From positions 310,001 to 374,000 of the forward strand of contig QPGO01000049.1 in assembly GCA_008632985.1 (NCBI GenBank): 64,000 nt of DNA, given 5' to 3'. Positions within the stretch are counted from its first letter, which is position 1; every line of letters starts with the position of its first letter. The notes beneath the pieces were generated by a model that worked only from the letters and a program-made list of their open reading frames with translations, was not told where the DNA came from and made no database searches. Both the position numbers and the translations under genes were made by a program. This document shows, in pieces, positions 1-60,627 of this stretch. This DNA comes from Psammoneis japonica. Taxonomy: Eukaryota.

Positions 1-2340
1 CTCAAGACTGCTTTCAATGCAACCTTCCTCTTTCCACAAACCAACAAACATCGCAGGTGGGAGTGAGCACATGCAATGGGATGGACAGCTGGATGGATCT
101 GGCACAACAACCTGATTTTGGCAAATTGAGAATCCCAACATCTGGGTTGCTTTGGGTGGGTTGGACAGCCACCACCTCCTGGTTGCTTGAGGCATCACAT
201 GTTGCACACACAAAGCTGGGTGTTGTCATGCCACATGATGTGGCACTTTGAAGTTGCACCCCATGCAATGCTCAGAACAACAAAGAAGTGCATCTCATGC
301 CATGGAACTTGATTGTTTGTACATCAATGGCCACAAAGTTGATCAAGATGAGAGTTTTGTCATCACACCACAACAAGACAGTGGAAGATTTTGATGGTTG
401 TGCTGGATTTCTTGGCACTGTTGACTGTCATGCCACATTCAGACACGCCAACAAACAGTGTGTTTGCTGACTTCCACAGGGCTCTCACAACTGCTGCGTG
501 AACAAGTCCAAAATCACTGGGTTTGTTTCTGCTGTGCAGCAGATGCAATCATCATCAGCATCTGAGGAGTGCACGTGCACCGGCATGAACAGAGTCATTT
601 TTTTCTTCCAGCTTCCCATGGCAGATGCACAAAATGATGTTTTGATTTCCGGTGTCAACAATGCATCTTGCACGATGTGGCAAGAGGAGCACTTGAATGT
701 TTTTTTTCTGAAGAGAGTGGAGGAGCGCCAACTTGTGTGTCAAATGCAGCTGTTGGATGCTGTGAACAATTGTCGGCACCCACGACTCTCTCACATCGAA
801 TGGCAGTTGTGTCCACAGATGACGCCATGCATGGATGAGATCAGCTGCACTTGCTTCTCTCATGCCCCCATCTCCCCTTGTTTGGGAAGTTTTTGCTTCC
901 TCATCAAAGAGGCAGTCTCAGCCACAACACCTGCCTTGTTCTTTTCCACCCTGCGGTGTCAGCGCAGCTTGGCTGTGTGATGTGGCACATGATGTGCTTT
1001 GTCACGGGACAGTGCATGAAACCCAACAGTGCAACAAGGCCTGTTCCAGCTCCAGGTGCTCCTCGAAGGTTCGATTCCCATCTTTTGTGCATTTGGCGCA
1101 ATTGACTTTTTCCAAATCCGTTTTTTGCCAAATCGAGGGGCAAGTGCACTCTTTGCATGTGTTTTCGGGTGCACACTCACCTCTTGATTTTTGAAACGAT
1201 CAAAATTGAAGGAGTCAATTGAAGCCAAACTGCGCAGAAAATCGGCCTCTCTCGCGATGAAAAGCGGATCACCTGGAGCTGGAACAGGCCACAAGTGGGA
1301 GCTTCAAACCACCGGCGATTGGATCTGGAATCAGCTCGTTGAGCTCATTCCAAATCCATGCTCAAATGGATCGGAGTGCGCTCTCTCTGGCCTCCGCTGG
1401 CCAGTGGCTGCTCTCTGCTGCTGGCTGCCAGCTGGCTGGCAGCAGCGGCAGCACAGCCAGCGGCTGTCCTTCCTTGAGTCTGTGCGTCGTCCACACAGGA
1501 ACTAATTTTGCCCCCAGCGGACACTCTGGGTTGAGGATGGATCGTCCAGATGATGTCTGTTTGCGCATGAGCTTGCATTTTTTTGAAAAAACCTGGATTT
1601 CTCACGCTGGATGCGCGTGCTCGCCAACAAAACATTTTCAGCGATGGGCCGAACTTTGTCCCTTTGAAAGACATCACAGAAGGTGTTGGTGATGGTTGTG
1701 ACCATGCGCGATCTTTAGCTTGACGACTGTGGGTGTGTCCACAGACAGTCAAACGCCAGTTGTCGGCATTTCCTGGAAAGTCGTGGCTTGTCTCCCATGA
1801 GCAGTGCGATTTTGGCGAAAAATGGCGGTTTGTCGAATTTGACAACTGCACCGAATCCGACAATTGGCATTTGAAGGTTGAAATGTGCAGCTCGCATGCA
1901 GGCCCAACAGCCCTGATGGGGGCTGGACACACTCACAAGTGTTTGGGGGTGCTCAGAGGCATCGCAAAATGACACGGGCGAAGTGCAGGGAAATTGCAAA
2001 ATCACCAGCTAATTAAAAAAAAATGTCTCATCTAGAGACGATCCATCCTCAACCGTTTCCTCCCGAGTGACTGCAAATGACTGCATTTTGTATTTAATTT
2101 TTACATTTTACGTATGTAAAGCATGTAGTCATTGTTCAAAGATGCATTTCTTAGATGAACAATTTCGCATTGAAGCATGTCCAAATTAAGTGCGAAACGA
2201 TGGTGCCTGTTGCAGGGCGGCAGACACATCAGATGTAGACACAGGGTCATGCCATCAGTGTCGAACAGTGGCGTTAGGACCTAAATGATCCTACGGAATA
2301 GCCCATGGCTATGGAAGGCACCTATTTTGACAGAAGTTAA

Positions 2341-2942
2341 GGTGGTACGAGACGAAAATTGTGAAAATCGTTTCCGCGCGCATTTTCATTGAAAATCACG
2401 GGAATCAGGAATTCGTCGTCAGATAAAAGCATTGTGTCTTATTAGCGAATCACATGGGTCGGATGCGCGTGATTACAAGTGTGTCGCTCAACGGAAATTC
2501 CGTTTTGGCGATCGCTCATTATTTATCGCCTCGTTCTCTACATCGTCTTGGAAAGGCCATGAAAGGCACTTCCAAGACGAAAACACTTATGAATTCAAGC
2601 ATGCAGACACTTTCTCTACTGTCTTAGCTTCCTGCCGAGTGAAAGAAACTGCACCTTTCGACACTTTTTCCTATCTAAGTATCTAATTCAAAAACTTAGG
2701 GCGAAAAAACAGGACCTTTTTTTTGCTAATAGGAATATCTTATTGACATAATCTCGAAACTTGCAGTTTCTTTCCATAGGCAAGTCAAGGAGACACCAAT
2801 TAAGAATGCAGGACACTTGGTTGAAGGAAACGCAGCATTTGATAGCGTCCTGGGACAAGCCGAAGTGCGACCATCGCTTTGTGTAGAAACGTGTAGAAAT
2901 CATACCAGAAAAAATTCCAAACAATTTTCGTCTCGTACTACG
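2341..2942. mobile_element. Non-autonomous DNA transposon with 22-bp TIRs and TTAA target duplication (Kolobok/piggyBac-like)
   Basis: TTAA|GGTGGTACGAGACGAAAATTGT at 2337-2362 and ACAATTTTCGTCTCGTACTACG|TTAA at 2921-2946; the inverted repeat has 2 mismatches; no convincing internal ORF. Confidence 0.7.
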
Positions 2943-8139: not shown

Positions 8140-10200
8140 CCCTCCCCTAGCCTAGAGAGAATGTCAACAGAGACAACGTAGATCACAGACAGAAAATATG
8201 AGCATCACAATCAATCATGCAACAAGGCATGTCAGACCAAATGAACATGAAATAAATCAGACAAAATGTTCTCCAGAGGGGCAGTTTGTGGGTGCCAGTG
8301 TGGCATCGGAGAGAAGGCAGTGTCCCGTCATTCGGCGAGCATGGTGAGCATGCAGCATTCACCCGAGAGCCTTGGTGAGGTCATTGCCAGGGTTGACAAT
8401 GCTCAGAATGTATTGTGTTATGACATGTCTGGCTTCCTTCCAGTCTAGGAGCCCAAGTGCGAGCCACCAAATGCAAGTGTGTCAGGAGGGCTCGGCAAAC
8501 ATTGTTGTTGTTCATCTTGACTGCCAATTTGTTGCCAACACACAGGGGAGTCAAGTCTTCCTCAGGGAAGCTAAGCTCCTAAAGTGTGTGACAAAGGCAC
8601 AGTGCATGCTTGGTGGCATTGCCAGCAGCACAAAGCTTGGCCTCTGTGGAGCTCATCATGGCAGCTGTTTGGGTCTTGCATCAGAAGGAAACGGCAGCAT
8701 CATTTCCACCTGCAGCATCCAAAAAGCTGGGATTGAGTTAAATGCTCAGCATGTGGGAAAGTCAGGAGTTCTGAATCCAGAGCAAGATGCTTAAAAGAGC
8801 AGGTTGGGAGAGAGGAGTCCGTCATTGGATTCTTGCAATTCAGGCCCCAATGCTTTGTGCTTTGAAGGCATTTTGCAACAGGGATTCCCAGTGAAATGGA
8901 ATTTGTCCACCAAGGTTTCTTCCATTTTGGCAGGTGAAGGTGTGCCATCTTGTGTTTGTTCAAGGTGCACAACATTCAGGGGAATCTCATCAAACCATGG
9001 TTCATCAATGCCCTCATCATGTTGCACATGCTTGGTTTCTTTGACCTCAGAGGTCACTGCATCACACCACAAGATGTTCTTGGTTGTTCAACTGGAGCTT
9101 GGCAGGACATCTCTTTGACTTGTGCACCCATGCTGGAAAACCAAATGCGTGCTGCACCCCAAAATCCTCATGCTTTCCAGCACCACAGCAGCGGCAATTA
9201 TGAAGTGCATGTGCCCAGAGCTCAACAGGCAAATGCACACCAACGAGCATTGCTCAAATTTTGTTGGCAACTGTCAAATGTGAGCATTCATCAGGGCCAC
9301 TCTGATTGGAGGCATTCTCGCCAGTTGGACAGATGGCACAATTAAACTCTTCCTCAAACAATCTCCAAACTTCAGGATTCTTGTACAATTTGCCACCCTG
9401 ATCCACAAACACATGCTTGTCAGGACATCATGGCAAGTGGTCATTCATGAACCAACAGAACAATTCAATTGGAGAAGCCTTGGAGACTCAAGTTGCACCA
9501 TGGAGACAGTGTGAAAAATGATTGTGTGCTGCAACACAACAAGTGCAATCATTTAATCTGACACAAGCAGTTGTCCAAACTTTGGAAACTTTGGTTGGCA
9601 CAGGATTGTTCACATCAAAAATTGGCTGCATTCGCTCTCTTCTCTTGCCTCCTGTGTTTGCATCATCACAATCACACCACACACTGCCATTTCCTTTGTC
9701 ACCCGGTTCACCCACACACAATCTCTGCTCATCTTTACAACAAAATGAGCTCTGCCAAATGCGAGTCATGTGACATTGTTCCAAACTCATTTGTCAGCCT
9801 GTCTTGTGTGTTGCCTCACCTTGTTTGACTTTGTCCCAGCCCCCTCTGTTTGCACCACAAAATTTTTGCACCACAACATTGCAGCATCTCTGCACCATTG
9901 GAAGGACCCAATCCACTTGTCATTCAAAGAGTTGGCTTGACTTGCAACTCTTCAATGGAAGCTGGGCACTGCAACCCCAAAACACGGAACTGAGCATTGA
10001 AGACACCAGATGCATGCGCTCATTGTGGCAAGGGCAGGAGCTTGCTTGGGGTCCTTTTGTCACAGAAAAATCTTCAAGAGAAAAGCATGACAGACAGCTG
10101 CAAGTGACCCCCAATCTGCAAGCCTTGCATCCAAAAAGGAAAGAAGCCCATAAAAAATGCACAGAAAAGTGCCACCAGCAGAGCAATGTGGAGAAAAAGA
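7922..10200 (-). mobile_element. Degenerate Ty1/copia (CoDi-like) LTR retrotransposon; RT apparently deleted
   Basis: Minus-strand translation of 8320-8710 gives copia RNase H motifs (KTQT..SSTEAK, TPLCVGN, NPGNDLTKALG*MLHAHHARRMTGHC). Integrase C-terminal-like WCDAVTSEVKETKHVQHDEG at ~9010-9070. The 5' boundary is approximate. Confidence 0.75.
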
Positions 10201-13200
10201 ACAAAAAGTAAAAGCACCGCAAGTCCCGCCAGTGTCTTGTTCCAGAGTTGGGTGTGCACATGTGCAAAAAAACACCCATTTTTGCATGAAGTGCATGGCC
10301 TGAAATTGTGGCAGAAATTTTCCAATGTTGAGGCTTGGGTGCATGCAGAAATGTCTTTTGCACTCCTGAATCAACCTTTCTGAGGATCATGTTTTTTGGT
10401 TTTTCAGCTCCAGGGCCCTGGCACCGGCAAATGGTGCCACAAGATGAGCGCTCAATTTTCCTCTGAGTGGTTCATGTTTGCAACAAGAACATGCTCCCAT
10501 TGCAACCAAACTCATGCCAAGAATGCAATGGCCACAGCACCAGAATCTGTTAAAATTTTGCTTGCACAAGTGAAAACTGTGTGCAACAACTGCCCCTCAC
10601 TCATGCAACTGCATCAACTGCGTGTGATGTGCATTTTCTTGGGTTTGTTGATGTTGTTACATCAGTGCAATCATGGGGCAAGGCCTGCACAATTTGTGTT
10701 TTTTGTTCATGTGTTGGGTTGGGGATCACACAATGGTTTCAGCAACACAATTGTCAAGTCACAAATTGTGTGATGAGTGAATTGCAAAAAAATGCAGTGA
10801 TCAACTTTGGACCCTTTCCTGCTGCTTTCTTGCAATCAATGACTGAAATCTTGCACCAGTCAATTGTTGGAAAACAATGCAAGTGATGAAGGAGAAAAGA
10901 AATGTTTTGAGCAGCAAATTGGGAGCAAAGTGAGGCTCATTGTTGCTCCTGAAAGCTGTGGTCATTGTGGTGCAGTGCAAAAGTGTGACACAGACTGCAA
11001 CTGCTGTTTTTCATTGCAGACAGATTGTGTGTTGACTGTGTTGAACAATGTGGCCCTCATGATGCAATTCAATTGAGCATGAGGTTGAAAAAAGGGGGCC
11101 ATCATGGCTGCCACAGATCACAACTTTTTTGTTTTTCTTTGTTCGTGTTTGTTTTGTGTGCAGACACAAATGCAGTGTTTTTAACGCAAACAATCATGCA
11201 ATGAACACATCACAAAACATTTGTTTTTGTGCAAAAAATGGACATGTGCACACCACCCAAGTCTGGAACAAGTCCAGCGGATCACCAACTCAGCAGAGGA
11301 GACTGGTCTCTTCTGCAAAAGGCCCAGCAGGTGCACAAAAATGACAAACATTCATGCTGCTGCTGTGCAGTGCAGCAGATTTGTGCCTCCTGGCAGGTTC
11401 AAGTGATGATTGCATCAATGCTTGCTTTCAAATTGTGCTGTGTTGCAACAACAAAAATGGCCAAAGACAATGGGAGCACACAGAGCATGGCACAGCATGA
11501 GACAGAAAAAGAGAAGAGTGGCGCTTTCTGTTTGACAGAAGCTGAAGGCAAATGGCAAGAATTCAAACAACAACTCCTTGCTGCTGTCTAAACAGCAGAT
11601 GAGTCTCCACTCAGAGACCGTCACAGGAGCCGAAAGACGTGTAAGTCGGCATAATCGGGCTACTGTCATTGTTCTTGTGAGCCTTGTGGCTCGAAAGCAA
11701 ACTACATCGCGCGCGAACGCGCGGAACTAAAGCACACAAAACTGTGCGCGGTAAACTAAACAGCGCGCGACATTTCGCGCGCACCTAAATCCTGTTCAAA
11801 TCCTGTCACTGTTCTCTTTTGTAAATCTTGCATCAAGCACACCTCAAAATCATCTGTTGCATGCCAGCACTAAAACCCATGCCAATTCTGCATGACAATC
11901 TCAATGTGTCACTGTGACCCCCCACTTCCCCTTTTGCACTTGGAAGCTTGAGTCAGAACACAAGATCAGTTCGTGCGTGCCCAATGGACATGAGCAAATG
12001 CCATGCACAGCAAAACTTAACTGTCATGACTGGGAGCTCTGGTCTTGGCTTTCACCACATGTCAAACTTGGCAAGTTTGAGCAATCTCTCAAACTTGCAA
12101 GATTGCTCAAACATTGCAAGATTGCTCAAACTTGCACAACTTTGAGCCAGCTGTTTTCAATGTTGACATTTGAAAACATTGCAACATCAGTTGTGTTTTC
12201 CATGGATGAGCCAACAAGACAAAAAAACAGCCCCAGCCAACAACCAACAATGCTGCATGACCACCCATGGCAGCATCAAATTACAATCTTGTGACAACAA
12301 AAATGACACCATTGCAACCCCCACATTTTGCTCAGCGAGGTGGTGTCATTTCTTGTTTTGTCAGTGCAACAAACACAGACTCATGGGATGATTTTAGCAA
12401 CTTTCAACTGGAAATTTCTTGAACCCTTGTCTTGAGGCATTTTGACTCCCTTCTCTCAGCAATCAATCAAAACAGAAATGATGCCATCAAATCCTCTGCA
12501 TGCACATCAGCTGATGAGATTTTTTCTGTGTCACAAGAACCTGCTTTGGTGACCTCATGCATCAAGTTTCTGTGATGGACCAAGACTTGCAACATCTTCT
12601 GAATGCAATGTGTTCATTTTTGCAAGCACCACTTCATGCACAACCATGTCCTTCACCAAATGTGTCACACTTCCTTCATGTCATTGACTGGCTCAACTTT
12701 TACAATCTCAAAGCTGAAAGAAGTTGTCAAAAATGACAAACAAACTGCTGTGGCAACTTGTGAAAAAAAAAGCAAGTCCAGGCAATGTTGTGCATCATGT
12801 GCAGATGGATTGAACAACAGCCAGGGGCTTGAATCTAAGAATCCTCCAACCAGCGGACAACCAGACTGAAATCTGCACAAAGAAATGTGAGGGCAAGCAC
12901 ACAAATTTCCTTGTTGTGTTTTTGTGCAGTGAGGTTGCCTGCATTTGCTGCAACACTGCCTCTGTTGTGGCATTGCAAGCATGGCTCCCTTTTTGTGTTG
13001 TCTCATGACCTGAAAACAGCAGCTTTGTCTCTGTCTCTGTTCCTGAGTGTTGATGAACTAGATTCAAAAAGGCACCCTGAGTTTCAAAAACATTCAGTTG
13101 TCAGTGGCTGGATGTGTGCACACAATGGAAATACAAAAAGGCCCTTTTCCCAGCAACATTGCACCTTCTGTTTGTCCTGCTTCATGCCATGTGGTTTTGA

Positions 13201-44842: not shown

Positions 44843-46324
44843 CCGGGAACTTCAATGGGGTTTGGGAGCCACAAATGGTCTTGTTTGGGGGAACATGCCG
44901 GAGACCATGCGCTTCAACCACAAACAATTCCCCGGAAGTGCACCACTTTTAACTGCTTTGAGCTTGGTGTTTTTAACCTCTTCTAAAACACTGATTGCTC
45001 TTGCGAGCATTTCACAAGACATTGCTTGTGTTCCCAGTTTGCAACAGACTTCATTGACTGTCTTCTCATCAAACAAATCTTTTAAAATTCAATTGATTTG
45101 CAAGGCTTTTAAACATTCCTCAACAGAAAAAACTCTTTAAGAATGGCCTTTTGGCTTTTGCTGTTTTGACTCCTTTTTGCAACAAGCAGATGCAACGATG
45201 TCTTTCGACAAAACAATCTCAACCTGTTCACCATGTTCCAAAACATGATGGATCAACTCCTGGAGCAGAGGAATTGGATGACGCCAACCAGGACACCGCG
45301 TGCAGGAAGCACATCCTTGCCTTCACCCCAATCCCAAATGTGCACAAACCAGCTGTCCAATGTGCACTGCCCACAACTGACTCCTGGTGCAGGATGCTGT
45401 TCTGGGTGCAGGCTTTCACAGACAACCCCAGAGCCACTGTTGCCCGCTGGTCCTGATGGTGTTGGCAGCTGTGATGCAACAGGTTTCCTTCAGCAACAAG
45501 CAGCACTTGCATGATCAGGAGTCACCAGCAATCTGTTTGGTCCTGGTTTACACTGGGGCACTCCACAGCCCCCTCTCTCTCCATTCTTCCCACAGGATGC
45601 AACAAATGCCACAGGAACAAATTGATCTGGCAGGTCTCCATTGGATGGCAGTGCCACCCAGCACTTTGTGCATTTGTTGCTGCCACTGGGACCAGGGGCC
45701 AGATCAAGTTGCACAACACAGCCCTGTGGCTGTGGCAGGACTCACCCAAATGCAGCTTCCACCAGAGGAAACTCTGACAACTCTCCTGAAGAAGCAAAGC
45801 CCACTTGGACAGAGTGCTGAGTGTGCTGCAGTGTCAAGATGGCATCACATTTAATGTTGAGCTCATGATTGCATGTTGTTTTGTCTTTTGTGGCAAACAT
45901 TGGTGCTGGAGTGCAGCAAAACAATGGGCAGGCCTCTCCGCAGGTCCAGCCTGGGGCTCCGGTTCAGCATCCAGCAAGTCGTGCTGGTGCCGGAAACTGT
46001 GCATGCTCCTTCAACAAGATGCTTCTGCCATCCATGCTTGCCCATCAGGAACAGCAAAGCCCCATCACTTGCTCACCACATGGTGCAACAAAGACAGCAT
46101 CAAGTGGCACGTCATTTGCACAGCAACTGCGGGGTTTTGGCACAGGGAGTGACATGCACGGGGTGCCAGGGTCACCTTTGCAGCCTTGCAGCAATCCTGT
46201 CATGCAAGGTTCTTTGCCAGGTGGACTGGCTGGTGGCATGTGGGGGGTGCATCCAGGGCAGCAGGGCATGCCACAGCACTGTCCTGCAACTTTGCCTGGT
46301 CCACCAACTCAGTTTGCAGCATCA

Positions 46325-46665
46325 AACAAAGGACCAGAAGGAGCCAATCTGTTCACATTCCATGCACCAAACCACTTTACAAACCTGGACATGTGCTGCC
46401 TGTTTTGGCAATGCAGAAACTTGTTCAATGTCCACATCATGGTGGGAAAAGAGAGGGGGTGCAGTCCCGGTTTTGATTTTGTTTCTTTTTGTGACAATCC
46501 TGAGTCTGTGTCCATGGTGATCAAGGAGTTGAATGGCTTTGCTGCAAGTGTTGCATCATGCTGTCACACATTCATTTGATCTGGCCTCCCACATTTTGCT
46601 TTGTTTCTGTGTTTGGTGACCCCCTTAGATCAGAAGCAAGTGGCTCAAAGTGCAACACAAGCAAC
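46325..46665 (+). pseudogene. CELF/Bruno-family RNA-binding protein, C-terminal RRM with retained intron, hypermutated
   Basis: GPEGANLFTFHAPNHFTNLDM...GFDFVSFCDNPES...IKELNGFA, then an intron 46544-46628 (GCAAGT...TTAG), then IRSKWLKVQHKQ; matches CELF RRM3 (GPEGANLFI.H.P...GFGFVSY...NGF.IG.KRLKVQ). Confidence 0.8.
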
Positions 46666-49049: not shown

Positions 49050-50390
49050 CCAGACATTTCATTTGATGAACTTGTGGGAACAACAATGTGCCAGATGTGT
49101 TCTAGCCGCCAGCTGCACGTGAACCAAAATGAGCACAATGATGACATTCACGTGAATTTTTACGTGGTCTCTGACTTGCAAACAAGCTTTCACCACCCAA
49201 AGCACAGATTTGCACAAACAAAAATGTTTTGCAACACTGACAAGACTGGCATCAGTGTTGCGGTGTCATTGTTTTTGTGCAGTCAACGTTTTTTCATTGT
49301 GACAAAAGAGTTGTAACACAACAGATGATTTTCGCCAAAAATTTTTGAAGATTCACACACTGTTGCTGTTTGCAGGCTAACAAATGACATTTGTGCATGC
49401 ACTTTGTAGTGTCAATCCACTTGCACAAAAATTTCTGTGCTGTGAGTGCTGACGCACAGTCAGCATTGTTTCCACATGACAGTTTTGTGACATGTGTGTC
49501 ATCGAGACTTGAGCGCCAATGAAAAAAATTGTTTGAATGTCCACACTCTAATTGAGTGTAGAAGCCAGAATGCACAAGCATTTTAATGAACAGCCTCAGG
49601 AATGCATGGAGCTTGCACAAACCATGTTCAAAATGGGCTGCCATTTTGTGCATCACCTGGGGCTGGAACATGTCACCAGGTGCGTTCTTCAATGTCTGAA
49701 GAGCGCACCTGGCCAAGTGAAAAATGATGCACTTCAGTCATGGATGAGTTTGTGCATTCACAAAATTGCCTCATTTTCTGTTGGCAATCATCGACACTTT
49801 CATTGCCTGACAATTGCAGAGCTTGCATGCAGAATTCTGTGGGCCCAATGTCACACAGATTCCCGCCTGCATCTGGAGACGTGTTCCAGCCACACATGAA
49901 CCAAAACATGCACAAAAGTGACATTTGTGTGATTTTTACATGGTCTCTAACTTGCGGCACAAACAAGCTTTCACCACCAAAAGCACACATTAATTCAAAC
50001 ACATGTGTTTTGCAACACTGACAAGACTCGTGCACACAACAATTGGTTTTTGCCAAAATTTTTAAAGATTCATGTGCTGTTGATGTTTGAAGGCCAGCAC
50101 AAAATGTTTGTGTGTGGTGCGCATTTTGCAGTGACAATCTGCTTGCACAAAAATTTCTGCAGTGCAAGTGCTGACACATGGTTGGCATTGTTTCCATGTG
50201 GCAGTTTTGTGATGTGCACGTCATGAAGACTTGAACTCTGATGAAAAATTTGTTCAAATGTTCACACTCTCTAATCAAGTGCAAAAGCCAGAGTGCACAA
50301 GCATTTCAATGAACAGCCTCGACACACAAAGCTTGCACAAATTGTGCTCAAAATGGATTGTTGTTTTGTGCATCACCTGGGGCCAGTGCA
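49050..50390. repeat. Degenerate tandem duplication, offset ~720-780 bp
   Basis: acaagctttcaccac at ~49182 and ~49963; ttgcacaaaaatttctg at 49421 and ~50143; tgcacaagcattt.aatgaacagcctc at ~49571 and ~50293. Confidence 0.75.
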
Positions 50391-52900
50391 GCATGCGACT
50401 GTCATGTGCATGTCTGTAATTGCACATTGTGTGTGTCAATCGCACCACATTCATGCATGCGCACGAAGGACAGAACGATCACACAGAGTTGATTGGATGT
50501 CGAAAATTGCAAATGCAATCGATTGACAATGTTGACATCTTGCGTGTCAATGGCAATTGCACCCAGATGATCTGTTGTCACAATTGCATTCTCCGAAAGG
50601 CCTTTTGTCTGCAGAAACAGCACAGAAGCTTTGGGCCATTGAGAACTCATTCGGAGAAACCAAAAATCACAGAACAAAATTTAATCTCACAATTTCCACT
50701 TTTTGCACTTTGCTCTGCTTTTGTTTGTGCTTGTTCTTCAAGCACAGTGCACCAGAGCACGTCTGGAACATGTCTGCCCATGGTGCACGGGTGCAAAAAG
50801 TGCTGTTTTTGCATCATTTGTTTTGAGCCGCTCACCATCGCAAGTCTGTGTGTCAACCAACATGCGCATGCTTTGCACACCCCATGCCCACCCACGCACA
50901 GAACAAACAGGCATCAGGAATGAACAGGAACCAGACAAAGCATGGACAAATTGCAAAAAGCATGGGGGAACTTTCTCACAGATTCTATGAGACAAATGGG
51001 TGACAGACAGACAAGTGTGACAGAAAAGGCCAATTTTTGTCATCCTCATGCTTTTTGTGCCACATTCGATGCTGACAATGGCGTGCTGTTGTCAATGCTG
51101 TTGACTGGTTTTTGTGTGACGAAACGCATCATGTGTGTCTTGTGGCAAGTGACAAGCATGGATGCAAGCCCATGTTGACCCTGGGTGCAGTGTTTGTGGT
51201 TAATTTCAGGGCATTGTTGTCACTGGATTTTTTTGCAATTTTCTGTGTGAATCATGCACAGCAAAAATGTGGGACATTGATGACAGTGGAGTCATCTTGA
51301 AATGACTGATTGGAGCCACCAGACAGACACCAGTGAGCCAAATGTTGTGCATCAGCTGCACTTGGCTGTCATGTTTGTGTTGTTGCTGCTGCACATGCCT
51401 GAAATCAGTGCAGATGTTGTTTTCATCCCCACATGGTTGCCATTGTTGCTTGTCATGTTGTGTCACATTTTCATGCATCTCGGTTGCATTTTTCGAATCA
51501 ACCTCATCTTTTTTTTTGAGGTTGTGTGCAGCTTGCAATTCTTGCATAAACCTTGTGCCAGCAAAATGCCAGGAAACTGGCATCTGTTGCCTGTTCATTC
51601 TTTCTGCAGCTGCCCCCGGTCAAGTCATGGACTCTCACACAGGAATCTCAAAATCCGCAAGAGCAACGGGGCACATTTCCCACCACACACATGACCCTGG
51701 TGCATTGGCTGTCTGAATTCTCTGAGAGTCAGTCTGTCAAGTGATGGGCTGGTGGGGTGTGCAAAGCATGTGAGTGTCGTCATGGAGAGTGGTTTTCAGT
51801 TTTTTCAGTTTGTTTTGCGTTGCCTGGGTGCCGCACACGGCATCGCCACTTGCTGTCTGTGCAGTGATTTCTGTCATGATTTGCACTTTTGTCTGTCCCT
51901 GCAAGCAGTCTGCCACACCACGGGTTGGCTGGCACTGGCATTGTTGATTTGGTGGGGAGTCTCTAGAGCCAGCTGCTGGCTGAAAAAGTCTGCTCATCAG
52001 TGCGTTTGGGGAATTTGCCAGTGCAACTCTGTTCAGGGTTCTTAAATTGCAGAATTTTCTGTCATGGTCAGTTCACAAAAAATTGTTACATTGCGAAGAA
52101 AGCGCAAGTGCACCATCATAAAAAAATGCGATTGCACTGATTTGGCAATCACACTGCAATCATGTTGTGATGCTGCCTCCTCCCGGCAGGGGCGTGCCCC
52201 GTGCGCCCTCCGCACAGGAGCGCCTGCATGATCTGGGTAAATTTCCAGCATCAATTTGGACCTTGATGGCAACCTCAAAGACACTGTGTAAGATGACACT
52301 GGAAACATGCATGGAAAACTGGCAGTGCATTCACTCGTGCTGCAGTTGTTTCTTTTGCACTGCCTTGTCCCAAGATGCAATTGTGGCAAGGAGAGGCAAA
52401 ATGAGGGGCGGCCATTGCTTCTTTCCATCTCTCTTGTTTCTCTTTTCTCAAGAGGTGCAATGTGGAAACGAGACAGTGCCAGTGGCCAGAGACTGCGTGG
52501 TGTGCAAAAAGAGCGGCGATGGTGTGGTGCCTCCGAAAAATGTGACGTGCATGCGTGACGCAAGATTCCACATTCCGAATTCTCACATTTGGCTCTCGAA
52601 AAGAGCTTGCACAATGATTGACAGACTCTTTCAGCACTGAAATGGACAGCTTGCCGAGTTCATTTTTGGTGTGCCAGTGCAAAGTTGTGCAGATCTGCAC
52701 ACACAGGTTTCTATGTGCATTTGCACTGAAATGGCAGTTGGCCCATCAGCTCATTCAAATTTGTGCAGCAACCCACCCGTGCATGCCGCACTTGCAATGG
52801 TGATGACACAACAGCATTGTTTGCACTCTGATGCTGCCTTTTCACTTCACATCTCCCTTGCCATGGAGTTTAAGAATGTAACTGACAATCGGTTCAAGAA

Positions 52901-53243
52901 AATGGCAGGTTGTGATCGGGTTGCAGGGGTTTTGTTTTGCCATGAAAAGATGCCGTTGGACCCATCAACATGACACACAATGGTCAGTGTTGACATTGAG
53001 ACGACATGTTGACCCCAATTGAAGCATCTTTGGCAACATTGTGGCACTGGCATGCAGTGTGGAAGACTCAGCAATGGCAGGTCGTGACCGAGTTACAGGG
53101 GTTTTGTTTCGCCATAAAAAGATGCCGTTGGACCCATCAACATGACGTGCAATGGTCGGTGTTGGAATTGCAACAATGCACTGATCCCATTTGAAGCATC
53201 CTCAGTGGTGTTGTGATGTTGGCATTCTACATGGAAGACTCAG
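52901..53243. repeat. Tandem repeat, 172-bp unit, two clear copies plus a degenerate continuation
   Basis: aatggcaggt.gtga...aaaagatgccgttggacccatcaacatgac starts at 52901 and 53073. Confidence 0.85.
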
Positions 53244-54312
53244 TGGTTCTCAATGTGGTGGCATGATGGTGGAGTTGGCTGGAGGCCAAGGAGGACTTAC
53301 CCTGAGTGTGTTTCTGTGGATGCAAGAACCGCAAATGATGCATTGGCCCCATTGGAAGTTACTTTAGCAGCACTGTGGCAAATGTGACCGGTGTGGATGA
53401 CTCATCAGAGCTCAAATTGGTGGCATGACAGTGAATTTAGCCTGATCCCAAGGAGGGCTTGTTCTGAAAAGGTTGCTCATCCAGGGACTGTGACTGGCTG
53501 CTTTGTCGTCCTTTTCACCATGCAGCAGAAGTTTAGAGGGATCTGCATTGTGGGCACAAACAAGTGATGTTTCCAAAAAGATTTGTGGTTGTAGACATCA
53601 ACCAGTCACATGACAAATCCATGACTGAAATAAAATGCTGGAGAGTTGTCAAGTCGGCGGCGTTGTCATCTTGTTGGACGAGCTAGAAGTCTCATCATTT
53701 GCTCTCCTACGGCAGAGAGCATTGATTGAATTGAACATCAACTTGATGTGGGAGACAACAGTCACATTGGTGGAGGAGTTGGCTGTGGTTGTCATTTGAG
53801 AATGATTCAAAGTGGGTGACGCAGGCCTCTGTTACGACCCAACAACATGCAAACAGCTGTGCAGTCTATGTTGAAGCTTCTGACCAGCTTTGAAGGCAAT
53901 TCATTTTGTCTGTCGACAGACCGACCATCTGTGTGTTGTGTGTGACAATGATGTTTTGGCATTTTTGCTTTACATTCACAGTGTGTCAGCAACGCCATTC
54001 GCTCTCTTTGTGCTTTGTGTTGTTCTTGTGTTGGAGCTCGCAGAGTTCGTGATGTTCGCACGCATGCATGAGAAACTGTCGCATGTGGAAACACATTGAA
54101 TTTCTGCTGGCATGCTGTCCTCGAAAAGTCCAACGGACGAGAGGGGCCTGTGACCGTTGGTCATCGTCACCCCACAGAAAAAACCGTTGAAAATGACCCT
54201 CTGACCTCGGGACGATTGTTTTCCCCGTTGCACCTCTCATTCTTCCGAAGAGCAAAGCAACAACTAGACAGTTTTAATCGCTGTCTCGAGGCTGAGGACA
54301 CCTTCAGCCACA

Positions 54313-56559
54313 TTGTTTGTTGCATTTGCTCGCAGGGACACTGCATTTGTTGTGGCAAACGTGCCACCACCACCAGGAGCAGGACAAGGACTGCCACCAG
54401 TGGCGAACCCAAATGCGGGAGGTCAACCGGCACAAGCTGCGGCACCTCACGCACACGTTGCACCGCAACCAGGGGCAACCCAACCAGCCCCACCAGTTCA
54501 TCTGGTCCCAGGAGGAGCTGGAGCACCGCCCCCACCGGCACAGCCAGTCGCTGCGCCACCCCAACAGCCACCGATGGTGCCCTTGCCAATGCCAGTCATC
54601 AACACATGCCAGGCCTGCTGCTCCACGATCAACAATGATCCGCACGGCAGTGAATGCGCCGACCCGATGTTGGATTTTGCAGCGATTGTAAATGGCAACG
54701 CAAGGCACGGGGCGAACGCACTTGCGGAACGAGTTGCGTCGGCCTCGACGCACAACATGCCCATGGCCATGGCACTCCATTGCCGCGACCCCAACGCAAA
54801 CGCGGTGGATCCGGGCCGCATCCAAATCTGCCATCGCATCACTCAGCACCCAACCACGGTCGTGGGGCCACCCCAGCCATGGGATGGTCAGAAGTTTGCG
54901 ATCGTTGGTGACCTGCACCAAGGACAGCACACCGTTGTGACTTTCCCGGATGTGCATTTTGCGTTGGCCGCACCAGGGACTTGGGTTCCTGCTGATGCAG
55001 CATCAGCGACCCATGTCACCGCTGCGCCCGATGGGTTACACCCGGCTGTGGCAGCGCACAACGCGGACTCGGAGGAGGTGCGGACGAGGGGGGCCATGTT
55101 TGTGCCTTTCGATTTAGTCAAGCTGCTCCTGCCAGAGCCGCTGACCCCTGAGGAGGCACACACTCGCGCATGTGGAGCGCTTGACGCAGCGAACAAAGTG
55201 GCTGATTGCCAGGCACTTCTGGATTTTCTTCGCGTCGCATGTGTTGTGACGCAAGTTAATGGCGAGGAGTCGGTGGTTTGCACGGAGTGGCCCGCTCTCC
55301 CGCAACCGCCTGACAAGCACCTGATTCGTTTTTTTGACCAACGCGTGCATCACGACCTCCCTGGATTTAAAACACAGGCTGCGCCGGGACCGCAGTTCCA
55401 GCCGGTTATTCACGCTGTCGACAACCTCACCGCGGAACAATGGCAACAGCGTTTGGACACCCAAGCCCGCCAGCAGGCTGCCGATCACGGAAAGACACCA
55501 GTGCAGTTCTACGGAGAACATGGTGTCACAAAACGTTTGGCTGCTGCACGCAAGACTGGACGGATCACTGCAGTGCAGAATGCTGTGGATGAGCAACGCC
55601 AGGCACAGAATGTGTGCTTTGAGGTTCCAATCTCAGTTGGCATGGTTGCCAAGCTCGTTCAACTCACATTGGCCGGACATGATAAAGATGACCTCACCCA
55701 AGGTGTCAATCCCTTCATTTTTGGACTCACCACTCCTCAACAGGCGGAACAGACAGCACACCGTGCGGCCATGTGCCGCCAGATTCACGGTGGAATGGGC
55801 ACGCCCTCCCTGTCCGACACTGTGGTCCTTGAAGCACCGGACGACGCGAAGGTTGCTGCCACTGTGCAGGCGGTTCAACATTCACTTGATGGACTCCGGG
55901 TGGTCCTGTCTGCGGCCTCAGGCGCCACCCACCTGGTCGTCCATTACCTCATGGACCTTCGCCGCTCCTTGGATGTTTGCGCAAACGATCTTGCACTGCA
56001 GATGATGCACTGCCCTGCACTGCCTGCAGATTTCCAGTGCTGTGTCCAGATCGAAATCCATCATTGGTTTAAAGATCAAGAATCCATGCATAATCCCGTT
56101 CCTTTCACGCCCAAGAATGTCATCTACGAGGCGGCCAAGGGTGCCATGAATTGGCAGCGTCCGCTGCCGATTGCCGTTCGACCTCAAGGCCCACCAACAT
56201 GCGGCCCGACGGGACCGCTTCAGCATCCGGGATCAACTCAAGCACCTGCACCCTCACCTGCTGGGCAAGCTCAGACTCCGGGCGACAATTCCATTGTTTG
56301 CAACGAAAACTACGATGACCGTTTTTCTGCTGTTCGTGACCGCCCAAACGTGCGCTCTCGTGAAGTCAAGCAGCGCTGTGCTCGCAACAACATTGCCTTG
56401 CCCGTTGACTTGAATGGCGCTGCCCGTTGCCTCCCCTGCCACATTGAGGGGCAATGCAACACCAATTGTGGTTCCCGCAATGACCATCACGGATGCCACA
56501 CCGATGCAAAGCAGGCTTCGCTCCTCGAGTGGGCCACGGAGCATTGGAAAACTGAGTGA
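54313..56559 (+). CDS. ORF1 gag-like protein of the YR retrotransposon (mutated)
   Basis: 748-codon frame with Pro/Ala-rich N-terminus and C-terminal Cys/His finger CLPCHIEGQCNTNCGSRNDH; true start unclear. Confidence 0.75.
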   Translation: MFVAFARRDTAFVVANVPPPPGAGQGLPPVANPNAGGQPAQAAAPHAHVAPQPGATQPAPPVHLVPGGAGAPPPPAQPVAAPPQQPPMVPLPMPVINTCQACCSTINNDPHGSECADPMLDFAAIVNGNARHGANALAERVASASTHNMPMAMALHCRDPNANAVDPGRIQICHRITQHPTTVVGPPQPWDGQKFAIVGDLHQGQHTVVTFPDVHFALAAPGTWVPADAASATHVTAAPDGLHPAVAAHNADSEEVRTRGAMFVPFDLVKLLLPEPLTPEEAHTRACGALDAANKVADCQALLDFLRVACVVTQVNGEESVVCTEWPALPQPPDKHLIRFFDQRVHHDLPGFKTQAAPGPQFQPVIHAVDNLTAEQWQQRLDTQARQQAADHGKTPVQFYGEHGVTKRLAAARKTGRITAVQNAVDEQRQAQNVCFEVPISVGMVAKLVQLTLAGHDKDDLTQGVNPFIFGLTTPQQAEQTAHRAAMCRQIHGGMGTPSLSDTVVLEAPDDAKVAATVQAVQHSLDGLRVVLSAASGATHLVVHYLMDLRRSLDVCANDLALQMMHCPALPADFQCCVQIEIHHWFKDQESMHNPVPFTPKNVIYEAAKGAMNWQRPLPIAVRPQGPPTCGPTGPLQHPGSTQAPAPSPAGQAQTPGDNSIVCNENYDDRFSAVRDRPNVRSREVKQRCARNNIALPVDLNGAARCLPCHIEGQCNTNCGSRNDHHGCHTDAKQASLLEWATEHWKTE

Positions 56560-56730
56560 GAATTCGGCAGCGGCATCGGTTCGGGGACCGACCACCGAGA
56601 GCCTTTTCATCTGGAGCCGGCGACGGCACCAGACCCGCCACCCCCACAGGCGGAGAATCTGTGTGCTCAGCAGAGCCATGGTCGTCCCACTCTTCGTGGG
56701 CAAACCATTGCAAACTCTGAGCTGGATAAA

Positions 56731-58750
56731 TTGGGCAAGCAAATTCTTAAGGATGCTCTTGCACTTCGTCAAAAAGGTCTCAGTTGCCTCCTTCGCCATC
56801 GCAGGAAGAGAGGAGACTGGGGTCAGCTCCGCAAGGCCGCAGGGCATCCAGCCCACAGGCTCTTGTGCCATTGCCGAACACGGGGAGCGCCCATCACGGT
56901 CGCCGATGCCCCGTGGACGGCTGAAGAGCTAGAAGCAAGTGTCATCAGGGGGCCACACAAGTCCACTTGTGAATGCATCGATTTTTTGCGCGAAGACATG
57001 CACGACTGCGTTGAAAAAGGTTTTTGGGTTGTGCCACCGTATGAGGAAGTGAAGAACGTTCCTGGTCTGCGCATTAGTCCGATGGGCGTTGTACCCCAAC
57101 ATGCCAGACGGCCCCGTCCCATTGTTGATTGCTCCCACTTTGGGGTCAATCAAGCCACACAGCCAAACGCCCACATGGGGGCAATGCAATTCGGCCGGAC
57201 ATTGGACCGTTTGCTTCGGCGCATCCTCCTCGCCAACCCGAAAAAGGGGCGAGTCTATCTCATGAAGATCGACCTCTCGGATGGCTTCTACAGGGTTTTC
57301 TTGTCTGAAGATCGTGCACCTTTGTTGGGCGTTTCTTTCCCACACTTGCCAGGCGAGCCACGCCTCGTGGCAACTCCGACATGTCTGCCCATGGGATGGA
57401 CTAATTCGCCACCAATCTTCAGTGCAGGTACAGAGACCGCGGCTGACTTGTCAAATCAGGCCTTGCTCCATAATGTCACAGCACCGCCACACCGATTGGA
57501 GCGACTCGCTGAGAGCCATCCACCGACACATCAACCGACACCGCCACCGGACCCGGCGCTCTCCGTCCCCGTTCCAGCCCAATCTGACCCACACCTCAAC
57601 CACTCTAAACGTCGGCGTCTAGCATGCATCGACGTTTATGTTGACGACTTCATCGGTGCAGCCCAGGGCGATGCGACCGCCCGCCGCAACGTGCACCGAG
57701 TTGTCATGCATGCCATCGACGACATCTTTCGCCCTGCCGATTCCCACGACTCGCCCACTCGCAAGGAGCCCACATCCGTCAAAAAGCTCCGCAAGGGCGA
57801 TGCAACGTGGACCACGCAGAAGGAGGTCCTTGGTTGGTTGATCGACACTCAGTCGATGACCTTGCGGCTAACACCACGCCGCCGAGAACGCCTTCACCAA
57901 ACACTGTGCCAGGACTTTCCCCGGAGCCGCCGCCACCCACTGTCCTCGATCACCAGAAGCTCCTGGGCGAATTGCGTTTGCTCGCCATTGCCTTGCCCGG
58001 AGCTCGAGGACTTTTCTCCGTTCTACAGGAGAATCTCCACCACGCTACACCCGATGCACGCCTCCGGCTCACGGAGAACGTGCACACCATTCTCGATGAT
58101 TTTCGAGACCTCTGTGCGACACTGGATGCACGCCCCACCCACATTCAAGAGCCAGCCCCGTTGGAACCCACTGTTGGGGGTTGTCACGACGCAGCCGGCC
58201 ATGGTGCCGGGGGCGTCCTGCTGCCAACTCCCACAGCTGTGCCACGAGCCACTCAACTCCGCACTGGCACCGGACGTGTCTGCTCTCACACACGCCTGGG
58301 CCCCATTGTGTGGCGCATGCCTTTTCCCAAGGACATGACTGCCAGCCTTGGCACCTGCGAGAATCCCAAGGGTCCCATCACCAACACCGACCTTGAGCTC
58401 GCGGGCAGCTTCATTCAGTCCTGCACCTTAGCGGATTGCTGTGACATCAGGGAACAAACTTTCCTTTCCCACACCGACAACCTCGGCACCATGTTTCAGC
58501 AACGCAAAGGAGCCAGCACGACCACAAAACCAGCCTCCCATCTCCTCCGGGGCCAAGCCCACCACCAACGCCATCACCGTTGTGTTGGCCTCCACGACCA
58601 CATCCCCGGCCCTCTCAACGGCGCAGCAGACAATGCTTCTCGCATGCAACGCCTCCCTGACTCTGATTTCTTGCACCATTTTGACTCTGCTCACCCACAG
58701 ATCTCCTCCTGGCGAATGTGGACCCCACCACCCGCGCTGCGTTCATTCGT
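56731..58750 (+). pseudogene. Reverse transcriptase / RNase H of the YR retrotransposon, frameshifted near 57930
   Basis: RISPMGVVPQ..RRPRPIVD, KIDLSDGFYR, LPMGWTNSPP, YVDDFIG and KEVLGW motifs; continues in the 57807 frame with DAAGHGAGGV, ITNTDLELAG, TDN and ADNASR. Confidence 0.88.
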
Positions 58751-59863
58751 GATCTCAGTGCTGTGCAGCATGCCATTGCCCACAGCGTCACTGCTTCAAG
58801 ATCCTCCACCGCCGATTCCCACTGGAGTCTCTGGTCCAACTTCTGCACCCAACTGGCCCTTGACCCACTCCTCGAAGACGTTTCCGACCCCGTCATCTAC
58901 CTTCAAGTCTTCCTGCATCGGTGCCGAACTGGCGCCATCACCCCCCGCGGAAATCCCATCCGCACACGCACCGCTGAGGATGCCGCACATTCAGTTGGGC
59001 AAACGTTTGCGGCAATGGGGACCCCAGACCCCCGACACACATCCCAAGGCCAGTTGGACTTCCGCCTTAGCCGACAAATTCGCTGTCACAAGAAAGAGGA
59101 TCCTCCACCCGACCGGGTCAAACCAGTCCCTGTTGCCATCCTCTTTTGGATCCTCCATGCCGCCGCAATCACACCCCACACAGGAACAAAAGCCATTGCC
59201 AGCATGATTGCGCTGGCTCACTTTTTTCTCCTTCGGCCTGGCGAATGCACCGCCACCCCATCCGACACCACCCCTTTCCGCCTGGCTGACGCACGGCTCT
59301 CCTTGGGCGGTGTTTACCTTGACATTTGGACAGCCACCGATGCCCAACTCGATGCCGCCACCTTCGCAACGCTTGCGTTCACTGATCAAAAGAACGGCGT
59401 CCACGGCGAAGTCATCGGTTTAGGCTGCTCCGGCCATCCCCAACTTTGCCCTGTCCTTGCTCTCGTTGAGTGCATCAAGCACCTCTGCAATCATGGAGCG
59501 CTCCCAGACGCCCCACTGGGAGTTTGTTTTGCCAATCATCAATGGCATTGTGTTTCACTGGCTGACATCTCCTCCGTGCTGTGCACCGCCGTCATTGCCA
59601 TTGGCCCTGCCAACCTGGGTTTCAACCCCTCCGACATTTCGGCCCGTTGTCTCCGCGCCGCCGGTGCCATGGCATTGCTTTGCGCCCACGTTGACACCGA
59701 CGTCATCTGGCTCTTGGGCCGGTGGCGATCAGATGAGATGCTTCGTCACCTTCATCTCCAGGCAGAACCCATCATGCGCCACTTCGCCAGACGCATGTTG
59801 GAAGGTGGAGATTTCGTCCTCCACCCAAACGCGGAGGTTCCCATTCATCTGGAACCCCCGTGA
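58718..59863 (+). CDS. Tyrosine recombinase of the YR retrotransposon; catalytic Tyr position reads His
   Basis: FFLLRPGEC, QKNG, CPV.A, ARCLRAAGA and LGRWRSDEMLRHLH motifs; overlaps the RNase H frame, as is typical of DIRS-order elements. Confidence 0.88.
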   Translation: MDPTTRAAFIRDLSAVQHAIAHSVTASRSSTADSHWSLWSNFCTQLALDPLLEDVSDPVIYLQVFLHRCRTGAITPRGNPIRTRTAEDAAHSVGQTFAAMGTPDPRHTSQGQLDFRLSRQIRCHKKEDPPPDRVKPVPVAILFWILHAAAITPHTGTKAIASMIALAHFFLLRPGECTATPSDTTPFRLADARLSLGGVYLDIWTATDAQLDAATFATLAFTDQKNGVHGEVIGLGCSGHPQLCPVLALVECIKHLCNHGALPDAPLGVCFANHQWHCVSLADISSVLCTAVIAIGPANLGFNPSDISARCLRAAGAMALLCAHVDTDVIWLLGRWRSDEMLRHLHLQAEPIMRHFARRMLEGGDFVLHPNAEVPIHLEPP

Positions 59864-60627
59864 TTCACCACCAGCCCGCCAGCCGGGCCCACCCACCCAC
59901 CCACCCAAGACTCGTGGCCCATTCCGACTCCACGTTGTTGTTGGGAGGCGCTGGCGGCCCTGCCGTCCAGCTTGGGATTTGGAGAGGCGTCATGTGCACC
60001 AGCGAAGCACTCTCCACTCCTGACCACCTGTCCCACTTGCTGCCCAGCCTCCCAATCCGGGTCGACCGAAGGACGAACGAGAAAAGCGGTGGCAGCCGCT
60101 GTCCTCAAAAAGTCCAACGGACGAGAGGGGCCTGTGACCGTTGGTCATCGTCACCCTGCAGAAAAAACCGTTGAAGATGACCCTCTGACCTCGGGATGAT
60201 TGTTTTCCCCGTTGCACCTCTCATTCTTCCGAAGAGCAAAGCAACAACTAGATGGTTTTAATCGCTCCCACCTCTCCCGCCCTCTGGCCCTGCCATCCAG
60301 CTTGGGATTTGGAGAGGCGTCATGTGCACTAGCAAAGCACTCTCCACTCCTAACCACCTGTCCCACTTGCTGCCTAGCCTCCCAATCCGGGTCGACCGAA
60401 GGACGAACGAGAAAAGCGGCGGCAGCCGCCAAAAATGAAACTCGACAAGCTGTCCATGCATTCTACGTAGCCCTAAACATTATAATACACATGATGATTC
60501 TTCAGCCAGGCTGGAGACTTCCCCCGATTGTTCATCAACTCGGTTGGTTGTTCAGAGTTGAAAAAAAACCTGGTGATTGTTTGACGATGCGAGTGGAGTG
60601 TCTGGCGCTATTTTCCACAACATCAAC

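Follow-up and report, generated by a model that had tools for sequence, protein, structure and literature searches.

A 64,000-bp stretch of the diatom Psammoneis japonica genome (NCBI GenBank assembly GCA_008632985.1, contig QPGO01000049.1, positions 310,001 to 374,000 of the forward strand; 49% GC), hereafter the window, was found to consist of two sharply distinct kinds of sequence: gene-bearing DNA of ordinary composition, and blocks in which the dinucleotide TA has been almost entirely replaced by TG and CA. The depletion signature was confirmed as real and far beyond chance. TA was the ancestral state and TG and CA the derived ones, a direction on which four independent lines of evidence agreed. 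The blocks very probably record TpA hypermutation as a phenomenon, and a domain-directed TpA>TpG/CpA mutational process acting as genome defence is the favoured overall reading and a likely one. The depleted blocks and a process of this kind had been proposed earlier from the nucleotide sequence (hereafter the original prediction). All coordinates are positions in the window, and dinucleotide frequencies are given as observed/expected ratios (obs/exp).

Composition and borders of the depleted blocks

In 1-kb windows, TA obs/exp lay between 0.01 and 0.28 in the depleted blocks, with TG and CA at 1.3-2.3 and CG mostly at 0.04-0.8, compared to TA at 0.47-0.79 and CG at about 0.8-1.3 in the gene and intervening blocks. 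This sliding-window count of TA, CG, TG and CA bore out the blocks named in the original prediction, whose coordinates were also close to those of an independent segmentation based on TA/(TA+TG+CA) below 0.10 in 200-bp windows, smoothed. The segmentation called about 40.8 kb as depleted, representing 64% of the window, at 100-2000, 8260-11580, 11860-15740, 18740-19860 and 22100-24700 in the left half, and at 30880-33240, 33520-37180 (in three pieces) and 38400-60280 (broken at 38920-39440) in the right half. Three short additional calls, two within genes (17740-18120 and 27020-27480) and one in the undepleted right flank (61220-61380), look like ordinary composition. The pooled values of the two kinds of sequence were as follows.

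Depleted blocks: 40,728 bp; 6.0 TA per kb; obs/exp TA 0.10, CG 0.45, TG 1.68, CA 1.71; GC 49.7%.
Undepleted DNA: 18,157 bp; 40.5 TA per kb; obs/exp TA 0.57, CG 0.95, TG 1.17, CA 1.22; GC 46.6%.

Relative to undepleted DNA, the depleted blocks had 34.5 fewer TA and 23.8 fewer CG per kb (58.3 in sum) and 62.8 more TG plus CA per kb. Since the combined losses of TA and CG nearly equal the gain of TG and CA, they point to a TpA process on top of ordinary CpG decay, and TA>TG/CA plus CG>TG/CA account for the whole TG/CA excess. CpG decay alone is not enough, as the CG loss covers only part of the gain and the remainder is matched by the TA loss.

TA-free gaps longer than 300 bp numbered 45, the longest measuring 1,183 bp. 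The block edges were abrupt, within about 50 bp, and adjoined TA-containing intergenic DNA, for instance on both flanks of the RIO2 gene. Stop-to-stop open reading frames (ORFs) in the depleted blocks contained about 0% tyrosine.

Simple sequence was observed at some borders: a run of about 16 C (19800-19824) lies at the right edge of the 18.7-19.86 kb block, and a (GCTA)n-like microsatellite in which TA is kept (21968-22002) lies just ahead of the 22.1-24.8 kb block. Within depleted DNA, positions 12062-12145 hold a CAAACTTGCAAGATTGCTCAAAC-like word in palindromic or tandem arrangement, with an inverted match of 77% in a self-BLAST.

Direction of the TA changes

The direction of change was read first from two copies of a 0.5-kb repeat, one in depleted and one in undepleted DNA.

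12257..12760, forward strand: depleted copy, 66% identical to 38184-37685.
37685..38184, reverse strand: undepleted reference copy, with 37 TA and 12 CG aligned (TA 0.60 and CG 0.97 in the window 37001-38000).

Of the 37 TA sites in the undepleted copy, 36 no longer read TA in the depleted one, where TG had taken the place of 13 and CA that of 10. The depleted copy itself held three TA, and the reverse change was seen at none of six T-preceded A/T positions. All 12 CG sites of the undepleted copy were also changed in the depleted one, nine of them to TG or CA.

Repeat pairs with both members in depleted DNA provided further evidence. Five such pairs (965 aligned columns) were compared, with an undepleted gene pair (24974-26067 / 27956-29040) serving as control. 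The depleted pairs differed by 149 substitutions, 126 of which were transitions, compared to 87 transitions out of 193 in the control. CA<->TG doublets, in which one ancestral TA would have been resolved independently to TG in one copy and to CA in the other, occurred 32 times in the depleted pairs against a column-shuffle mean of 2.5 and a maximum of 8 (2,000 shuffles), whereas the control pair had a single doublet for 0.7 expected.

Conserved tyrosine (Tyr) codons were examined in three recognizable coding sequences within depleted DNA.

32007..32345, reverse strand: methyltransferase pseudogene fragment of 113 aa, MPBQ/MSBQ-type (Pfam Methyltransf_31, 2.1e-09).
33791..35764, reverse strand: open 658-aa frame of a STAND-like NTPase family, decaying (131 relatives, best 50% identity).
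54086..60429, forward strand: long terminal repeat (LTR) retroelement, GC 58%, TA-depleted (0.07-0.28), CG nearly normal (0.76-0.99), with a reverse transcriptase ORF at 56560-58335.

The original prediction had reported conserved Tyr being read as Cys or His in such blocks, and this was recovered in 10 of 14 conserved Tyr columns (seven Cys and three His), the other four still being Tyr; all five changed sites inspected at the codon level, in the reverse transcriptase and NTPase-like ORFs, were TGY or CAY. In the methyltransferase fragment, five of five Tyr were changed (C, C, H, C, H), one of these positions being Phe in one of the four homologues. The reverse transcriptase ORF had two of four conserved Tyr changed (columns present in at least 40 of 60 homologues, with at least 70% consensus), and the NTPase-like ORF three of five (C, C, H; columns present in at least 5 of 29 homologues, with at least 60% consensus). 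It had been asked whether active family members already carry Cys or His at these positions. The 120 listed relatives of the retroelement protein contained about 2% Tyr and about 0.7% Cys, compared to 0.8% Tyr and 3.4% Cys in the window ORF, and intact members of the retroelement family therefore do not already carry Cys or His there.

Timing relative to integration and to CpG decay

The direct repeats of the retroelement (54114-54282 / 60098-60266 and 59956-60099 / 60286-60429, 96% identical) allowed changes that followed integration to be isolated. The LTR copies showed 13 differences, 12 of them at TA or CG sites. Seven TA sites could be inferred, of which two were kept in both copies, three were lost in one copy and two, in the comparison of the 5' with the 3' LTR, had become CA<->TG doublets; the three TA-versus-TG/CA sites lie in the second repeat pair (59956-60099 / 60286-60429). 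The per-copy loss k was at least 0.69 for TA (7 sites), 0.12 for CpG (22 sites) and 0.002 for other sites, so that the rate of change at TA exceeded that at CpG by a factor of at least about 6 and that at other sites by at least about 350, on small numbers (7 TA sites and 1 other difference). The differences between the LTR copies at TA and CG sites place the process after integration, on resident DNA, and as TA was lost faster than CpG, the TA loss is no by-product of CpG deamination. Across blocks, the retroelement and the 33.5-37.2 kb block had lost most of their TA with CG still at 0.5-1.07, and the most decayed blocks lacked both.

These differences bear on an RNA-level alternative, in which double-stranded transposon transcripts edited in an ADAR-like manner, or mRNA edited as by ADAT, would have been reverse-transcribed with their changes already in place at integration. 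A U lying 5' of the edited A is favoured both by ADAR and in fungal A-to-I editing, according to the available text of two reports (bioRxiv 10.64898/2026.01.13.699255; PMC11156358), and one depleted block is a retroelement. However, the 5' and 3' LTRs, identical at integration, differ by the two CA<->TG doublets, and the second repeat pair differs at three TA-versus-TG/CA sites; a host-gene fragment and non-coding repeat DNA are equally affected, and both strands are equally hit. An RNA-level origin is consequently very unlikely, and a process on resident DNA is preferred.

Dinucleotide specificity, strand symmetry and sequence context

With the undepleted copy of the 0.5-kb repeat as the starting state and both strands counted, A>G changes occurred in the depleted copy at 23 of 74 A preceded by T, 13 of 101 preceded by A, 11 of 70 preceded by C and 8 of 62 preceded by G. 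The obs/exp of AA was little changed (1.24 in depleted versus 1.19 in undepleted DNA). The process is specific for TpA, and not for WA.

Error-prone patch repair by a Pol-eta-like polymerase (WA>WG), set off by T:G mismatches from 5-methylcytosine (5mC) deamination, had been listed in the original prediction as a candidate mechanism, and CpG decay does co-occur with TA loss in most blocks. The WA mutagenesis did not hold up, since A>G after A was at background, no higher than after C or G, and AA kept its frequency; nor did the mismatch trigger, since TA loss outpaces CpG loss in the retroelement, both in composition (CG 0.76-0.99, TA 0.07-0.28) and in its LTRs (k of at least 0.69 against 0.12). 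This mechanism is extremely improbable. The strand-symmetric A:T to G:C process at TpA, apart from CpG decay, that had also been proposed was in turn supported by the direction of change in the copy pair, by the TpA specificity and by the LTR differences.

TG and CA products were interleaved at random in nine blocks (runs-test z from -1.95 to +1.6), with no overdispersion in 300-bp windows, and eight of the nine blocks showed no strand bias. No excess of runs, as expected from processive, strand-coordinated editing, was found across the nine blocks. The retroelement (54100-60280) had 616 CA against 459 TG and a GC skew down to -0.24, unlike the other blocks; this excess of CA probably reflects its own strand composition and not one-strand editing.

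Tetranucleotide context matters, ATAT, ATAC and ATAG being almost gone and TTAA largely surviving. The approximate strand-symmetrised survival relative to undepleted DNA was 0 for ATAT (0 versus 43), 0.02 for ATAC, 0.03 for ATAG, 0.09 for GTAC, 0.12 for ATAA, 0.12 for CTAC, 0.15 for CTAG, 0.24 for GTAA, 0.30 for CTAA and 0.69 for TTAA (56 versus 36). These values fit well a multiplicative model with one base per strand. The deciding base would lie either 3' of the edited A or two bases 5' of it; the tetramer gains favour the rule 'not A after the edited A', with which a GTAA>GCAA variant in the high-copy family described below agrees.

A high-copy element and possible ongoing activity

The original prediction had taken 8200-15780 as depleted, which stood for most of it (8260-11580 and 11860-15740); it failed for a short interval in which TA and CG are retained.

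~11595..11810: short high-copy element inside a depleted block, TA and CG kept, CGCGCG-rich, no Rfam match.

The summed k-mer depth of this element, which is not a copy number, was about 168,000 compared to about 63 in its flanks. As its TA and CG persist, the element probably inserted more recently, when the surrounding block had already been converted. Ten positions varied among other copies of the family, seven of them in five TA/TG/CA sites, two at CpG and one elsewhere, with TG or CA at roughly a third to half of the depth at the variant TA sites. The TpA process may still be running. When the window was compared with contigs assembled from a public read set, the seven single differences found all fell in depleted DNA, of which about 11.3 kb was covered, and the roughly 8.7 kb of undepleted DNA had none (Fisher p = 0.02). 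Each of the seven was a transition, four being of CpG type, one TA>TG and two others.

Read support and points against the preferred reading

The same read set contained 98% of the sampled words of 16000-25000, and its 31-mer contigs, 0.5-7 kb in length over 8000-27999, had an even k-mer depth of about 63-65 in genes and depleted blocks alike. Such even depth, and as few as seven single differences over 20 kb, are in keeping with accurate reads and with DNA present in single copy. A second read set matched parts of genes but none of the depleted blocks, and was not used as evidence. The first read set may itself have been the source of the assembly, and no platform is recorded for it; it therefore offers no independent proof against a systematic read error, in which a modified base at TpA would be consistently miscalled in sequencing or polishing. 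A blanket miscall would, however, spare neither the unconverted TA of the young element within a depleted block nor TTAA, and miscalls would not produce stable alternative TG and CA at homologous repeat sites. The probability of such an artefact is close to negligible.

Besides the provenance of the reads, several points weigh against a domain-directed TpA process. The undepleted reference consists of genes and intergenic DNA and not of ancestral elements, which is why the survival values are approximate, and some counts are small (7 LTR TA sites and 14 Tyr columns). As to which strand's neighbour sets the sequence context, 12 informative copy-pair sites split 6:6. A 1.1-kb gene duplicate at 80% identity is untouched by TA loss, so plain duplication at that divergence is not sufficient to attract the process, and the undepleted repeat copy at 37685-38184 has escaped despite having depleted blocks on both sides.

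Proposed mechanism

The evidence shows that, once these pieces of DNA had become resident, two mutational processes ran within them and stopped at their borders. One is ordinary CpG decay to TpG/CpA; the other, much faster, turns A:T into G:C at the A of TpA, with the strand chosen independently at each site. A domain-directed enzyme might deaminate DNA adenine in a T-A context, as ADAT/TadA-type deaminases do in RNA, although the adenine-deaminase step is offered tentatively, as one we would not yet count on. Repeat homology, small RNA or heterochromatin are candidate directing marks. Such a process would remove Tyr codons, TAA/TAG stops and TA-rich signals while making few new stops, so elements would be disabled by missense and not by truncation, the reverse of fungal RIP, with their frames left open; the loss of TAY, TAA and TAG with few new stops would explain the many long Tyr-free, Cys/His-rich open frames in the blocks. 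It would serve as a mutational defence of the genome and belong to one kind with the TpA hypermutation of Bigelowiella natans.

The mutated base could instead be T, if the thymine of TpA in silenced DNA were modified to a 5-hydroxymethyluracil (5hmU)-type base by a TET/JBP dioxygenase and then mispaired or was misrepaired, giving T>C. Since TpA reads the same on both strands, a T>C change there cannot be told apart from A>G on the opposite one, and all sequence tests made here fit it equally. In dinoflagellates, which also belong to the SAR group (stramenopiles, alveolates and Rhizaria), 5hmU made by TET/JBP homologues silences transposons and prefers T in TA and TC, according to the available text of that study (PMC11572971). 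The obs/exp of TC changed little in the window (0.97 in depleted versus 1.14 in undepleted DNA), a TC>CC signal not having been specifically looked for, and nothing in the present analysis shows 5hmU in diatoms. Nor is 5hmU known to be strongly mutagenic, which also counts against a change of the thymine. We regard this route as unlikely, though less so than the RNA, repair and artefact explanations, and retain the transition at the adenine of TpA as the preferred one.

Contents of the depleted blocks

As the relatives of its RIO2 gene and of the methyltransferase fragment show, the window is diatom nuclear DNA in which normal genes are interleaved with transposons, repeat-derived DNA and pseudogene fragments. 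When the stop-to-stop ORFs of the depleted blocks (149 with a length of 100 aa or more) were searched against Pfam, only two meaningful matches were returned, the methyltransferase fragment and a sub-threshold RVT_1. Weak MAGP and DUF7564 matches among these ORFs were far under their cut-offs and were disregarded. No viral domain was found by Pfam in the 149 ORFs, most of the block sequence being unrecognizable, and no deaminase was among the Pfam matches of the window. Rfam returned no match in the window, and a tblastx comparison of the window with itself yielded mostly noise and was set aside. In addition to the sequences listed above, the blocks were the following.

1..2010: depleted block running off the left window end; TA 0.01-0.03; TA-free gap 320-1503 (1,183 bp); sharp edge at about 2010.
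8200..15790: TA/CG-depleted, unrecognizable repeat-derived DNA; TA 0.05-0.27, CG 0.04-0.51.
18690..19860: depleted block between the M64 peptidase gene and RIO2; TA 0.13; TA-free gap 19163-19829; sharp edges.
22090..24790: TA/CG-depleted block on the other side of RIO2; TA 0.07-0.21, CG 0.11-0.34.
30810..33240: depleted block with the host-gene fragment; TA 0.06-0.07.
33520..37180: partly depleted block, TA low (0.13-0.29), CG near normal (0.48-1.07).
38400..54085: largest depleted block, unrecognizable; TA 0.01-0.38.

None of the seven ORFs of the leftmost block had a Pfam match, and no domain was recognizable in it. Contigs of the read set that represent other genomic copies connected positions 10845, 11274 and 11636 to about 23865, indicating that the same repeat family is present at 23.8-24.8 kb. 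The methyltransferase fragment showed 64-66% identity to four diatom homologues by tblastn, named MPBQ/MSBQ methyltransferase by JGI, and is a pseudogene remnant of a host gene. Weak nSTAND_NTPase5 matches were found in relatives of the 33791-35764 ORF.

The largest block contained diverged internal tandem repeats (49109-49663 / 49886-50383 and 52901-53071 / 53073-53243) rich in CA<->TG doublets. It had no credible Pfam match, its MAGP hit being a chance match (E 0.0063, 17.2 bits versus a 28-bit cut-off), and its 330-aa ORF at 46926-47915 had no usable match in a protein-atlas look-up. In the retroelement, the RVT_1 match of the reverse transcriptase ORF (1.7e-06) was under the Pfam cut-off; this ORF had 1,196 relatives with at most 64% identity, and a metagenome scan for the DNA of its relatives found none.

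Undepleted genes and intervals

Among the undepleted genes, RIO2 lay between two depleted blocks.

20143..21975, reverse strand: RIO2 kinase gene, undepleted, with depleted blocks on both sides; Pfam RIO1 and Rio2_N; TA obs/exp 0.48-0.50.

Its best named relatives were diatom proteins, with identities of 79% in Odontella (only part of the protein being covered), about 70% in Thalassionema, 67% in Fragilaria and about 58-60% in Thalassiosirales; an unnamed protein was the closest match of all, at 80%. Other genes in undepleted blocks, assigned by Pfam, encoded a tRNA m1G methyltransferase, an M64 peptidase and a bestrophin-like protein. The tandem duplicate 24974-26290 / 27956-29316, of about 1.1-1.3 kb and about 80% identity, was TA-depleted in neither copy. 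Its second copy overlaps a 234-aa ORF (27875-28579, forward strand) with a ricin-B-type lectin match (E 3.6e-05, 24.4 bits versus a 29-bit cut-off).

The undepleted interval 4149-7412 contains a 1,087-aa frame with at least 15 tandem repeats of 153 nt (51 aa) at about 80-85% identity. This frame had nine matches to Pfam DUF2345, a domain described from bacteria, and its opposite strand is open over 986 aa. Positions 37250-38350 form an undepleted kilobase without long ORFs between two depleted blocks, and hold the unconverted copy of the 0.5-kb repeat.

Comparison with known systems

The original prediction knew of no described system of this kind, a statement now outdated, as a preprint reports the same TpA to TpG/CpA hypermutation in the chlorarachniophyte B. 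natans (Mettrop et al., bioRxiv 10.64898/2026.01.13.699255). According to the available text of the preprint, two viral insertions in mutation-accumulation lines carried 231 mutations, 230 of which were A>G/T>C, all at TpA. De novo mutations arose in real time at about 1e-7 to 1e-6 per site per generation, the viral regions mutated at about 6e-7, about 1000-fold background, and an ADAT2 homologue was proposed as the enzyme. The same text describes TpA-depleted, CpA- and TpG-enriched clusters with reverse transcriptase and transposase domains, and an enrichment of transposon domains in TpA-depleted genes.

The signature of the window matches this hypermutation, and its kind is accordingly not categorically new. 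Both systems show almost only A>G/T>C changes, restricted to TpA, with TpG and CpA products on either strand, and both are confined to particular non-host regions with the host remainder normal. The rate excess is about 1000-fold background in B. natans, by the preprint's available text, and at least about 350-fold by LTR differences in the window. The two differ in lineage (a stramenopile diatom versus a rhizarian) and in the type of evidence, which is direct de novo mutation in B. natans and historical divergence here. Further differences, as far as the available preprint text goes, concern saturation (TA obs/exp 0.10 over 40.7 kb in the window versus a Rho of 0.45 in the B. natans giant-virus region), the targets seen (a retroelement, repeats and pseudogenes versus integrated viruses, namely giant virus and virophage) and coincidence with CpG decay, which is seen in the window. 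A TTAA-sparing tetranucleotide context is seen in the window, whereas that text gives no trinucleotide context (its supplementary tables may hold flanking-base data). It also makes no mention of diatoms or stramenopiles, and a literature search, with most subscription journals outside its reach, turned up no description of this signature for diatoms.

Fungal repeat-induced point mutation (RIP) likewise represents a post-integration, domain-limited transition hypermutation of repeats by which transposons are wrecked, and the dinucleotide scar left behind is sharply bordered. It turns C into T, chiefly at CpA, and so produces TpA and stop codons, as summarised in the same preprint (bioRxiv 10.64898/2026.01.13.699255, available text), whereas in the window TpA is destroyed, GC is raised (49.7% versus 46.6%) and frames stay open. 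Concerning the duplication trigger of RIP, the depleted blocks include repeat families, yet the process has spared the 1.1-kb duplicate with its 80% identity. DNMT4, which is related to fungal RID and is described in the available text as of unknown function, is present in many diatoms (PMC9998398); it is a lead and not a link.

According to the same source (PMC9998398), Phaeodactylum transposons are CpG-methylated by DNMT5a. The window resembles diatom 5mC-driven CpG decay in its block CG obs/exp (0.45) and in the change of 12 of 12 CG in the depleted repeat copy; it has also lost TpA, which CpG decay cannot remove, CpG decay covering about 24 of the 63 TG plus CA gained per kb. A-to-I editing of the ADAR/ADAT type, including fungal sexual-stage mRNA editing, shares A>G with U/T before the edited base (PMC11156358, available text), but acts on RNA, whereas the changes in the window arose in resident DNA. 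Dinoflagellate 5hmU shares a modification at the T of TpA tied to transposon silencing, in a SAR lineage, but is an epigenetic mark there, and is not reported as a mutational scar in the available text (PMC11572971).

Implications

Until now, a 2026 preprint on a single chlorarachniophyte has been the only report of TpA-targeted hypermutation. The diatom instance is new and far more extreme than that of B. natans, and adds action on resident DNA, independence from CpG decay at a faster pace, the absence of strand runs and of a WA component, and a protected TTAA. The same signature in a diatom would mean that at least two distant SAR lineages share it, and that it is not one alga's curiosity; its targets would include ordinary transposons and pseudogenes in resident DNA, and not only viral insertions.

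For annotation, depleted blocks yield long false Tyr-free ORFs and defeat domain searches. The 11595-11810 family would be the best substrate for a genome-wide mutation spectrum.

We put forward, as a possibility more than an expectation, that diatoms carry a dedicated domain-directed TpA-erasing DNA editor (double-strand A:T>G:C, with TTAA spared) as a defence, and that the same system exists in Rhizaria. If true, it would be an old SAR-wide counterpart of fungal RIP with opposite chemistry, disabling elements without stop codons. With many sequenced genomes and established genetics in diatoms, a comparison of scar-bearing with scar-free species should point to the gene, which would encode a naturally occurring enzyme that converts A:T to G:C within a defined DNA context, relevant both to base editing and to the policing of mobile DNA.

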